From Escherichia phage SR02: a DNA stretch of 64,000 bases. The notes below the pieces were generated by a model that saw only the letters and a program-made list of their open reading frames with translations, made no database searches and had not been told where the DNA came from. Location of the stretch: sequence record OQ870566.1. One strand, 5' to 3'. Shown piece after piece: positions 28,505-35,503 of the stretch; within the stretch, counting starts at the first letter, position 1, and the number at the start of each line of letters is the position of its first letter. Both the position numbers and the translations under genes were made by a program.

Positions 28505-29059
28505 ATGAGTTTACTAGGAAGCCCAGAGTTACATAAACTAATTGATGATGGTGTTATTGATGCACCACACTCAGCTGTTAACTCCTCCAGCATTGACGTC
28601 CGTATTGGAGATCGTGTTCTGATGGAAGGTGCAGCTAATGGGGTTGTTGATATCTCTGCTAAAGAATCTCCTAACTTCAACGAGGTTATGATTCCAGAGG
28701 AAGGGTTGGTGATCAAACCGGGTGAGTGTTTCTTGGCTCATACAGTGGAGACATTCAATCTTCCAGACAACATTAGCTGTGACTTCATGCTACGATCTAC
28801 TGTCGGTCGTTGCTTCTTAGAGCACATGCACGCTGGTCATGCAGATGGCGGTTGGCATGGCAGTCAGTTAACTATGGAATTCAAGAATGTCCTACAACAT
28901 CACTCTCTTCTGATCAAGCCGGGGATGCGTATTGGTCAAATGGAGTTCTTTAAACACTCCTCATCCGAAGAGGACAGTTACGCAACGAAAGGTTCATATA
29001 ATAACCAACAAGGGCCGACAAAAGCTTTTGGTGGAACAAACCATGCTGATATGCTATGA
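28505..29059 (+). CDS. dCTP deaminase/dUTPase-family protein
   Basis: SSIDVRIG, RSTVGR, ADGGWHGSQLTMEF motifs. Confidence 0.65.
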   Translation: MSLLGSPELHKLIDDGVIDAPHSAVNSSSIDVRIGDRVLMEGAANGVVDISAKESPNFNEVMIPEEGLVIKPGECFLAHTVETFNLPDNISCDFMLRSTVGRCFLEHMHAGHADGGWHGSQLTMEFKNVLQHHSLLIKPGMRIGQMEFFKHSSSEEDSYATKGSYNNQQGPTKAFGGTNHADML

Positions 29060-29552
29060 TGAAGTAGTTGACCTCTTTAATATAGACATGTCAGCACCTT
29101 CAGGGCTTTCTTGGAAAAGGAAGCCTAGTAAGTTTGCTAATGATATAGTAGGTAAACCTGCTGGTAAGCTCACAAAAGATGGATATTATCAAATTCCCTT
29201 AGGAGGAGTTCGTGTCCATAATCATAGGATTCTTTTTGTTCTTTATACTGGTGAGGATTTATCGGATGAATATCAAATAGATCATGCTGACGGTAATAGA
29301 GAAAACCTAGAAGAAACTAACCTGAGAAAATGCTCTCACTCTGAGAATAGTCAGAATGCTAAGACAAGGGTTGATAACAAACTAGGAATCAAGAATGTCT
29401 ACCGAGAGAAAGGTGGAACGTTCTGTGTATCTGTTCAAAAAGACGGTAAACGTGAGTCTGTATATGGGGTGAAAACTCTTGAAGAGGCTAAGATTTTGGC
29501 TAAGTCTATGAGAAGTAGACTTCATCTCTCCTTTAATGTGGATGAAAGATAA
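29043..29552 (+). CDS. HNH homing endonuclease with C-terminal AP2-like DNA-binding domain
   Basis: YQIDHADGNRENLEE...HSEN HNH motif; AP2-like VYREKGGTFCVSV. Confidence 0.7.
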   Translation: MLICYDEVVDLFNIDMSAPSGLSWKRKPSKFANDIVGKPAGKLTKDGYYQIPLGGVRVHNHRILFVLYTGEDLSDEYQIDHADGNRENLEETNLRKCSHSENSQNAKTRVDNKLGIKNVYREKGGTFCVSVQKDGKRESVYGVKTLEEAKILAKSMRSRLHLSFNVDER

Positions 29553-34311: not shown

Positions 34312-34320
34312 TAATGTATA
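34312..34320 (+). promoter_or_regulatory. TAATGTATA motif 36 nt upstream of 34357
   Basis: Exact TATAATGTATA. Confidence 0.45.
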
Positions 34321-34356
34321 CTCCTTAGTGTACACTGATATATTAAGGAGTTTTAA

Positions 34357-34674
34357 ATGGCAGACCATGTAGGAAAGAGAGATTATGCACAAGAAAGACG
34401 TACCGCAATTGCCCGTGGTGAAACAGGCGTTGGGAGCAAGAGCGGAGATGCTCAGCGCCACCGTGCACGTCGCATCGTTGAAAAGCGCGATGGAAAAGCT
34501 GCTGTCAGAGGTAAAGATGTTGGACACAAACGAGCTGTCAAGTCTGGAGGCTCTAATGCGTCAAGCAACTTACGTGTTGAATCAGTCAGCTCAAACCGTT
34601 CAAACGGCGGCAAAAGTGGTGATCGAGCTGGAAAAGCAAACGGAGCTAGGAAGGGGGCGTTGAGTGGTTCTTGA
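34357..34674 (+). CDS. basic Gly/Ser/Arg-rich hypothetical protein (frame ambiguous; overlapping +1 frame ORF 34385-34663)
   Basis: Strong AAGGAG RBS 36 nt after TAATGTATA motif; the alternative frame encodes a more helical protein. Confidence 0.35.
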   Translation: MADHVGKRDYAQERRTAIARGETGVGSKSGDAQRHRARRIVEKRDGKAAVRGKDVGHKRAVKSGGSNASSNLRVESVSSNRSNGGKSGDRAGKANGARKGALSGS

Positions 34675-35014
34675 TGACACCCTATCTTATGATGCGGTCA
34701 CAGGTAACCTATACTACACAAAATCTCCAAGCAAAGGAGTGATGTGGAACAAAAGCCATCCCGGAAAGATAGCTGGATGTAGGATATCGAAAGGCTATAT
34801 CGGTGTGTATTTCCAAGGAAGACAATGGAGAGCGCACCGGCTTATAGCTACACACTTTATACCAAACCCTAACAATTATCCAGAAGTCAACCACATAAAT
34901 GGGGTAAAAGACGATAATCGACTGGAGAATCTTGAATGGGTATCCGCTTCTGAAAACATACAACACTCCTTTGATACAGGGTTGAATAAAGGACATATTC
35001 GTGACAATAACTGA
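34664..35014 (+). CDS. HNH homing endonuclease (GTG start), separated by an in-frame TGA from a downstream HTH ORF
   Basis: HRLIATHF...VNHINGVKDDNRLENLEWVSASEN; by eye, collinear with the HNH at 29043. Confidence 0.6.
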   Translation: MVLDDTLSYDAVTGNLYYTKSPSKGVMWNKSHPGKIAGCRISKGYIGVYFQGRQWRAHRLIATHFIPNPNNYPEVNHINGVKDDNRLENLEWVSASENIQHSFDTGLNKGHIRDNN

Positions 35015-35155
35015 ATGACCAAGCTATCTTCTGAGGATGTTGTAAAGATTAAACAGATGTATGTGAAGGGTTCTAGGGATTTTGGCTCTAGAGGTCTTGG
35101 TAAGTTGTTTGGCGTGAGTCATACAGCAATACTTCATGCTTTAAAGGAGCTTTAA
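35015..35155 (+). CDS. 46-aa HTH peptide, probable detached C-terminal DNA-binding module of the HNH endonuclease
   Basis: ATG directly after the in-frame TGA; GLGKLFGVSHTAILHAL HTH. Confidence 0.4.
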   Translation: MTKLSSEDVVKIKQMYVKGSRDFGSRGLGKLFGVSHTAILHALKEL

Positions 35156-35173
35156 GCTCATAAAGAGGTTATA

Positions 35174-35467
35174 GTGTCAGCAGAAACAAAAAGATGTACA
35201 ATTCATACTTATTGTAAATTCTGTAAAGCAGAGGGTGTAAAAAGAGTTGCAACTTTAATGACCAAGTATTCTCCAAGTAGAGGATACAGGGACCACTATA
35301 AGCACTACTCTTGTAGTGATCACTCCCATCTATTAGAAGATACAGACCCGAATAGAACAAGGAGAGAGCATAACATTGACCTGAGAGCTACTCTCAAGGA
35401 AATGAAAAACAACTCTCGAAACAACCATTACACTGAAGCTGACTATCAAACTTGGCTTCGTCTCTAG
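35174..35467 (+). CDS. Cys/His-rich hypothetical protein (GTG start)
   Basis: AAGAGG RBS. Confidence 0.45.
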   Translation: MSAETKRCTIHTYCKFCKAEGVKRVATLMTKYSPSRGYRDHYKHYSCSDHSHLLEDTDPNRTRREHNIDLRATLKEMKNNSRNNHYTEADYQTWLRL

Positions 35468-35471
35468 AACA

Positions 35472-35503
35472 AAGGCTGCCTAATCAGGTGGCCTTTTCTT
35501 TTA
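35472..35503 (+). terminator. rho-independent terminator
   Basis: AAGGCTGCC-TAATCA-GGTGGCCTT + TTTCTTTT; same hairpin family as 9312. Confidence 0.6.

Follow-up and report, generated by a model that had tools for sequence, protein, structure and literature searches.

A probable recent nonsense mutation in an I-HmuI-like homing endonuclease gene of Escherichia phage SR02

Three collinear reading frames around an HNH endonuclease

On the plus strand of the genome of Escherichia phage SR02, three open reading frames (ORFs) follow one another in the same frame, separated only by single TGA codons. The middle one encodes an HNH endonuclease, and a further ORF in a different frame overlaps its start from upstream. 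Does this arrangement represent one gene interrupted by a stop codon, an enzyme made in two pieces, a product of readthrough or, in part, a coincidence, and which of the two upstream frames is the coding one? The window analysed here is a stretch of 64,000 nucleotides of sequence record OQ870566.1, and all positions refer to it. The complete SR02 genome, of 78.7 kb and assigned to Kuravirus, was sequenced by Illumina MiSeq at more than 12,000x coverage (PMC11997193).

Re-reading of the sequence bore out the coordinates, the shared frame and both TGA codons of the first-pass annotation (Table 1). SR02 proteins identical to the 105-aa, 116-aa and 97-aa products are deposited as WLW38278, WLW38279.1 and WLW38280, respectively. 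The answer that we regard with good confidence as the probable one is that the segment 34664-35155 constitutes a single gene of the I-HmuI type, lying inside a conserved 105-aa gene and split in SR02 only, and recently, by a nonsense mutation.

Table 1. Features of the endonuclease locus of phage SR02 (positions within the window).
Feature	Position	Strand	Remarks
Promoter-like element TAATGTATA	34312-34320	+	matches phiEco32 gp36 sigma consensus
105-aa gene (phrog_4590), host gene of the endonuclease	34357-34674	+	frame differs from that of the three collinear ORFs
92-aa ORF	34385-34663	+	same frame as the 116-aa and 46-aa ORFs
Replacement 3' end, in recoded form, of the 105-aa gene (NGARKGALSGS*), left cassette edge	34639-34674	+	
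TGA between 92-aa ORF and HNH ORF	34661-34663	+	
N-terminal 116 codons of I-HmuI-like HNH homing endonuclease	34664-35014	+	GTG start, ends at premature TGA
Premature stop TGA	35012-35014	+	GGA (Gly117) in the intact enzyme, interdomain linker
46-aa ORF, detached C-terminal three-helix HTH DNA-binding domain (predicted)	35015-35155	+	residues 118-163 of the intact protein
Relic of the original 105-aa gene 3' end (AAAGGAGCTTTAAGCTCATAA), right cassette junction	35143-35163	+	
97-aa gene (phrog_9585), function not assigned	35174-35467	+	
Intrinsic-terminator-like hairpin, followed by T-run	35471-35496	+	terminator scan

Domains and fold of the endonuclease

The 116-aa product matches Pfam family HNH_3 (PF13392) with 40.8 bits (cut-off 24.8), as well as phrog_59, phrog_99 and phrog_959 with E-values between 3e-28 and 2e-24. 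A beta-hairpin region at its N-terminus is followed by the HNH catalytic core, and the five catalytic-motif residues that are invariant in the family alignment (H58, N76, H77, N89 and N98) all lie within the 116 aa. The 46-aa product gave weak HTH matches only (E=0.01; Pfam, NCBIfam). Relatives of the enzyme carry PF13392, and more distant ones PF07463 (NUMOD4) in addition; members of the wider family, typically 155-200 aa in length, retain the same C-terminal KLT...HTH domain.

An AlphaFold model of an intact ortholog (99% identical to the SGF2 protein), built on an alignment of 39 sequences, has a mean pLDDT of 92 and features an N-terminal beta region, the HNH core, a linker and three C-terminal helices (residues 123-132, 142-149 and 153-161). 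Model confidence is lowest in the linker, at about residues 105-122 (pLDDT 74-85), and it is there that residue 117, the position of the stop in SR02, is found. The top structural match of the intact ortholog in the PDB is I-HmuI (1u3e_M; Foldseek, full-length match, E=1.6e-6, probability 1.00, 174 aligned columns). I-HmuI 1u3e is also the only significant PDB match by sequence (phmmer, E=6.9e-6), and in the alignment of the two H77 and N98 fall opposite their I-HmuI counterparts. As far as sequence and model indicate, the intact enzyme of this lineage is an I-HmuI-like free-standing HNH homing endonuclease, of a kind that is well known.

The first-pass annotation had likened the joined HNH and HTH parts to an intact "HNH-AP2" endonuclease encoded at 29043-29552. 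That product, of 169 aa, does match HNH_3 and shows 23% identity to the HNH product over 104 aa (E=1e-5), but the likeness is a loose one. An AP2 domain was not detected in it by Pfam search (E<=0.1).

A stop codon private to SR02

In phages SGF2 and EC.W2-6, the same 492 nucleotides form an uninterrupted 163-aa ORF with 96% DNA identity to SR02. These phages read NN-G-MTKLS where SR02 reads NN-stop-MTKLS. The difference lies at position 35012, which is T in SR02 and G in all eight of the closest DNA copies drawn from GenBank, ENA and Logan contigs (L001, L002, L010-L015). The picture is the same at the protein level. Ten of the 11 members of the 90% protein cluster are 163 aa long, the exception being SR02 with 116 aa, and six sister clusters add 25 distinct members, all of 163-164 aa. 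Altogether, 35 of the 36 distinct sequences of the endonuclease lineage are 163-164 aa long with HNH and HTH parts contiguous, SR02 being the odd one out. The codon in place of the stop is GGA, GCA or another sense codon in relatives, and the ATG directly after it in SR02 (TGAATG) is an internal methionine codon in relatives. The 46-aa product was absent from the protein collection, and none of the sources annotates it as a gene. The proposal that the HTH module has been detached from the HNH part by a stop is thus borne out by the single 163-aa ORF, with GGA, of the closest relatives.

Codon differences between SR02 and its relatives comprise 14-17 synonymous and 2-6 non-synonymous changes. 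Relative to L012, non-synonymous differences are confined to G117* and Y140F. Besides the stop, the changes private to SR02 (34682, 34840, 34897, 34993, 35119, 35128 and 35134) are all synonymous as judged by their position in the reading frame. This dominance of synonymous differences indicates that the endonuclease gene was under purifying selection essentially until the nonsense change, and the mutation would be recent since the rest of the gene still looks selected. Most likely, then, the G-to-T change at 35012, by which Gly117 (GGA) became TGA, is a real, recent and lineage-private nonsense mutation. Three options had been put forward at the outset, namely a decaying homing endonuclease, a two-piece enzyme and a readthrough product. 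The first fits best, although "freshly broken" describes the gene more exactly, as no further decay is apparent; the other two find no support in the comparison of the locus among relatives, where orthologs with the same stop had been considered as a possible outcome and where none of the 35 other sequences carries it.

Alternatives to a simple nonsense mutation

A stop seen in one phage could also be an artefact of sequencing, assembly or consensus calling, or stem from a mixed stock in which it is the minority variant, with the endonuclease of SR02 being intact in reality. The T at 35012 is indeed a singleton among all copies found, the assembly involved SPAdes contigs joined with CAP3 (PMC11997193), and the pairing of the HNH gene with the 97-aa gene, unique to SR02, could hint at a chimeric assembly. 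Nevertheless, an erroneous consensus substitution is improbable with Illumina MiSeq data at the coverage given above (PMC11997193), and the SR02 copy, with private synonymous changes of its own, represents a distinct lineage and no mis-merge of known sequences. We therefore consider an artefact unlikely.

Unlikely too, and somewhat less plausible still, is a functional split, in which either leaky UGA readthrough would yield a low dose of full-length enzyme, or reinitiation at the ATG would give a separate HTH peptide acting with the nuclease in trans or competing for its target site. Several features are compatible with this reading: the stop lies exactly in the flexible interdomain linker and is followed directly by ATG, the linker position is occupied by G, A or P in relatives so that Trp might be tolerated, and no SR02-private change in the HTH part is non-synonymous. 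The lack of decay downstream of the stop is expected if the mutation is very recent, and equally expected under selection on two products. Against a functional split, the stop is conserved in none of the 35 other sequences, the ATG is ancestral as an internal Met codon and no new start, no Shine-Dalgarno-like sequence is seen within useful distance 5' of 35015, no suppressor tRNA was found (the only tRNA of the window is Arg-TCT), and gene calling in all sources passes over the 46-aa product. One may still speculate, with slender odds, that the stop in the linker does no harm or is even of use, the UGA leak setting a very low dose of full-length enzyme while the core and a reinitiated HTH are made separately and free HTH damps cleavage. 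If true, SR02 would offer a view of a homing endonuclease, naturally attenuated or in two pieces, very soon after it had arisen.

Two related candidates were rejected. TGA is a normal stop in the window, where it ends 13 of the 45 long ORFs of the plus strand; together with Arg-TCT as sole tRNA, this speaks against an alternative genetic code or a suppressor tRNA. Programmed readthrough and a conserved two-piece enzyme are likewise unsupported, as the stop is unique to SR02.

The upstream frame

The second question concerns the frame upstream of the endonuclease, which had appeared ambiguous. The 105-aa ORF is preceded, six bases 5' of its ATG, by AAGGAG (34345-34350), and its end overlaps the GTG start of the HNH ORF by 11 nt. 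Its product matches phrog_4590 (PHROG search, E=1.5e-40), and tblastn retrieved homologs from 266 phage records, including phages of Escherichia, Pseudomonas (LUZ24-like), Vibrio, Aeromonas, Salmonella and Cronobacter, among others. In seven aligned Kuraviruses, 13 of the 19 variable sites are third codon positions of the 105-aa frame, and these same sites are second positions of the 92-aa frame. More distant relatives differ in 3-8 of 83 amino acids when read in the 105-aa frame, compared to 20-26 of 82 in the 92-aa frame. No PHROG match and only sub-threshold Pfam matches were obtained with the 92-aa product, the exact sequence of which was not found in a collection of 15 billion proteins. 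In the homolog of Cronobacter phage A24, the 92-aa frame contains three stops.

That this frame is open at all within the subfamily can be traced to the composition of the 105-aa protein, which is poor in hydrophobic residues. T occupies the second position in only 13 of the 105 codons of the gene, and the second position is the sole place where a stop in the +1 frame can begin. In random synonymous recodings of the 105-aa protein, the 92-aa frame was stop-free over the same span in 11% of cases. The family match, the 266 records and the third-position substitutions all favour the 105-aa ORF with its ribosome binding site, which by these indications is the real gene, and the frame ambiguity is thereby resolved cleanly. 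The 92-aa ORF, in turn, is best described as a non-coding shadow frame, open by chance in the +1 frame of this gene; as a dual-coding gene it was rejected on account of the second-position substitutions, the A24 stops and the absence of purifying selection in frame 2. The TGA at 34661 does no more than close that frame ahead of the HNH start.

The idea that the 92-aa ORF overlaps the 105-aa ORF as a true gene of its own and that all three same-frame ORFs make up one readthrough polyprotein is scarcely credible: the 92-aa frame is open in every member of Gordonclarkvirinae examined, it is annotated in place of the 105-aa gene in GenBank record YW01, and DNA between 34430 and 34637 is unusually invariant among aligned phages, but such a polyprotein runs counter to the preponderance of second-position substitutions and amino-acid differences in that frame, to the three A24 stops and the lack of a family match, to the ease with which the frame stays open by chance, and to the different frame in which other HNH alleles begin. 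Indeed, in the two other HNH alleles found at this locus, HNH begins in frame 3 with respect to the upstream gene, instead of frame 2, so that the three collinear ORFs are a coincidence of the SR02-type allele. The first-pass description of them as a unit does not survive, their collinearity being no more than what chance provides. As for the 105-aa ORF, its ribosome binding site, separate frame, basic product and overlap with HNH were correctly described; the term "low-complexity" was not apt for a member of a widespread conserved family with an invariant H..N..N motif.

This motif deserves brief mention. H57, N71 and N80 are invariant in an alignment of 30 diverse homologs of the 105-aa protein, with VDH as family consensus and VGH in Kuravirus. 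A model of the 105-aa protein, of low confidence (pLDDT 65), places strands at residues 53-57 and 72-76, followed by a helix at 77-81. Alignment of the 105-aa family with the HNH_3 alignment using hhalign lined up the motif with E=0.007, at a probability of only 5%, and the 105-aa product had no Pfam, NCBIfam or PDB sequence match. H57..N71..N80 may possibly mark a minimal HNH-like fold.

Insertion site and neighbouring genes

The locus has matches in about 99 records of related phages, and 11 of these contain the HNH gene, as three diverged alleles with the same junctions. Patchy occurrence at one fixed site, together with the recoded duplicate of the host gene's end described next, forms a signature of mobility. 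In phiEco32 and NJ01, the empty site reads GCT GGA GCA CGC AAA GGA GCT TTA AGC TCA TCG TAA, with the terminator directly 3' of the host gene end; the empty-site sequence of phiEco32 or SU10 includes GCAGCTGGAGCACGCAAAGGAGCTTTAAGCTCA. The occupied site of SR02 reads AAC GGA GCT AGG AAG GGG GCG TTG AGT GGT TCT TGA. The peptide RKGALS is the same at both sites, and 7 of the 18 underlying bases differ (5-8 of 18 depending on the allele). The approximately 200 nt before this recoded end are nearly invariant among aligned phages. The original AAAGGAGCTTTAAGCTCA persists at 35143-35160, where the last endonuclease codons read through it. The same 18-21 nt end the 104/105-aa gene in the HNH-less phages EcM-vB1, phiEco32 and NJ01, and the relic bases follow HNH in all three HNH alleles. 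By this evidence the recoded 3' end travels with the HNH cassette, which begins at about 34639. By supplying a recoded replacement C-terminus, the cassette leaves the host 105-aa gene intact.

The 97-aa product matches phrog_9585 (E=5.5e-46) and is identical to the product found in SU10 and ES17. In other phages, its gene is inserted directly after AAGCTCA. It is absent from all the other HNH loci for which downstream sequence was recovered (L001-L003, L005-L008, L010, L012-L014). The 97-aa gene represents an accessory insertion in its own right at this hotspot. Since SR02 alone has both HNH and the 97-aa gene, a crossover inside the shared segment of 18-21 nt is required. Homing or recombination into a genome in which the 97-aa gene was already present would account for the pair; an assembly chimera is the less likely explanation. 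An attempt to delimit a left co-conversion tract by flank divergence did not discriminate, with 23 differences between SR02 and EC.W2-6 (HNH-positive) and 20 between SR02 and EcM-vB1 (HNH-less). The exact pattern of the HNH/97-aa junction gave no hit in a scan of JGI metagenomes. Exact scans of IMG/VR with this junction and with the 23-mer containing TGA also returned nothing, and were uninformative since the control 23-mer with GGA was equally without hits, IMG/VR thus having no exact match to this allele.

Expression and proposed mode of homing

The consensus of middle/late promoters recognised by the phage sigma factor gp36 of phiEco32 is tAATGTAtA, and transcription begins 6-8 bp downstream of it (PMC8948821). 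The element TAATGTATA upstream of the 105-aa gene is invariant in all seven aligned phages and is likely the promoter of a unit formed by the 105-aa, HNH and 97-aa genes. A hairpin similar to the one downstream of the 97-aa gene follows the locus in all relatives. Transcription of the unit would accordingly start from the phage-sigma promoter and end at the terminator listed in Table 1. The overlap of the GTG start with the end of the 105-aa gene suggests translational coupling, and low-level coupled translation from this GTG may yield the 163-aa enzyme in intact relatives.

If I-HmuI and other homing endonucleases of phages are taken as a guide, the HTH of the intact enzyme would anchor it near the 3' end of an HNH-less allele, where the HNH core would nick or cut. 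Repair from an HNH-carrying genome would then copy the cassette into the HNH-less allele. In SR02, the main product is expected to be the 116-aa nuclease core, which keeps the catalytic residues and has lost the target-anchoring domain. As a mobile element, the gene has most likely been inactivated or greatly weakened, with targeting and mobility lost or greatly reduced. In E. coli, termination at UGA is not strong when the next base is A. Some full-length protein may therefore still form, and "inactivated" may be too strong a word.

Implications

The premature stop private to SR02 is a normal stage in the life cycle of homing endonucleases, of a kind already known, and the case is otherwise ordinary. 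Its importance beyond annotation is small. The locus nevertheless illustrates the life cycle neatly, with an insertion that provides its host gene with a new end, patchy spread, and then a knockout by a single base. WLW38279.1 of SR02 (OQ870566), at present a "hypothetical protein", would be better annotated as a truncated HNH homing endonuclease, i.e. as a pseudogene. The 105-aa frame is the annotation to keep, and at least one related GenBank record (YW01) carries the shadow frame instead. SR02 is under development as a therapeutic phage, for which a probably disabled mobile nuclease is a small but concrete point of genome description.

Comparison with known systems

The nearest counterparts are the intact Kuravirus alleles of SGF2 (QEM42626.1), EC.W2-6 (WYA78370.1), EcoN5, YF01 and 4E8, annotated in GenBank as HNH homing endonuclease, which share locus, start and junctions with the SR02 gene. 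Identity to SR02 is 96% in DNA for the SGF2 type, and 65-77% in protein for the two other alleles. These genes are unbroken (163-164 aa) and are found without the 97-aa gene, whereas SR02 has both the TGA and the 97-aa gene.

Free-standing homing endonuclease genes of the Seg and Mob families in T4-like phages, and degenerate homing endonuclease genes in general, occur sporadically among close relatives, between conserved genes or at their ends. Their flanks are diverged at the junction, and point mutations inactivate them in the course of the homing life cycle. The Kuravirus HNH gene resembles them in its sporadic presence, its insertion at the end of a conserved gene, its diverged junction and its loss by point mutation. 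It differs in that it overlaps its host gene and re-supplies the C-terminus, unlike insertions in an intergenic spacer.

I-HmuI of Bacillus phage SPO1 (1u3e), with 174 aa compared to 163 aa here, has the same order of N-terminal beta region, HNH beta-beta-alpha-metal core, linker and C-terminal helix-turn-helix. Sequence identity between the two is only about 20%, and the catalytic pair is N-H in the Kuravirus enzyme and D-H in I-HmuI. I-HmuI resides within a group I intron, whereas the Kuravirus gene is free-standing in the 3' end of a protein-coding gene and, in SR02, has its helix-turn-helix cut off by the stop.

Endonuclease alleles and gene content around the 105-aa gene

The C-terminal HTH domain of the endonuclease shows 100% protein identity between SGF2-type and YW01-type alleles (SR02 against the homologous loci L003, L005 and L006 of relatives; rows P0002 and P0041 of A2, the alignment of the endonuclease family), whereas identity in the N-terminal nuclease part amounts to only about 64%. 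At the DNA level, divergence between these alleles is about 30% before it falls to about 6% close to the linker. Taken together, these sequence comparisons point to endonuclease alleles that are domain-level mosaics, with a breakpoint close to the site of the SR02 stop. A second HNH_3 endonuclease gene of SR02, encoding 169 aa, is intact and matches phrog_99 (E=5e-41), with a product only 23% identical to the broken endonuclease. The AP2 domain attributed to it by the first-pass annotation was not recovered in a Pfam search at E<=0.1.

In none of the other genomes and contigs examined (loci L001-L015) does the HNH cassette occur together with the 97-aa gene (phrog_9585); SR02 is the sole one with both. 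Having both implies either that recombination took place inside the 18-21 nt common segment, or that homing, exceptionally, left the adjoining gene in place. The 97-aa product itself found no match in either Pfam or NCBIfam, and its C-x2-C and several further Cys/His residues (CKFCKAEG ... HYSCSDHSH) suggest a small, putatively zinc-binding protein.

The 105-aa gene is a hotspot, bordered by mobile nuclease genes on one side or the other depending on the phage, since phage OliverMaurmann_Bas86 (L017) carries another, different HNH endonuclease gene directly upstream, overlapping the start of the 105-aa gene, and HNH insertions elsewhere lie on the other side. The interval separating the 105-aa gene from the PhoH gene is a further variable spot of the same module; one or two additional small genes (61 and 62 aa) are found there in some relatives (L005, L009, L010, L012), and SR02 is without them. 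Within the 105-aa gene, a stretch of about 200 nt displays nearly no DNA variation: 3 of its sites vary across seven Kuraviruses, whose neighbouring PhoH genes diverge by several percent. This near-invariance could reflect repeated co-conversion beside the homing site, or additional constraint. The shadow ORF does not explain it.

Coordinates of features in SR02 (window positions) and in related loci (positions within the locus)
Feature	Sequence	Position	Strand
Second HNH_3 endonuclease gene	SR02	29043-29552	
105-aa gene (phrog_4590)	SR02	34357-34674	+
Near-invariant stretch	SR02	34430-34637	
Broken endonuclease gene	SR02	34664-35155	
HTH domain	SR02	35015-35155	
Segment compared for co-occurrence	SR02	35143-35467	
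97-aa gene (phrog_9585)	SR02	35174-35467	+
Frame-2 shadow ORF (XQW40834.1)	YW01, L003	1386-1670	
Upstream HNH endonuclease gene	Bas86, L017	531-911	

The 105-aa protein and its family

In the GenBank record of phage YW01 (PV018828.1), the frame-2 shadow ORF is annotated and the conserved frame-1 gene is not, and in the Ptacy1532 and Ptacy1479 records the frame-1 homolog is named “Cas8 protein”, a label that looks spurious. The basic 105-aa protein belongs to an unnamed, widely distributed family of 95-115 aa, whose genes adjoin replication genes in several podophage groups, and could represent a minimal HNH-like protein for which Pfam has no model. In A3, the alignment of this family, H57, N71 and N80 are invariant, a GGS-N..SNL..N motif is present, and the consensus VDH is replaced by VGH in Kuraviruses.
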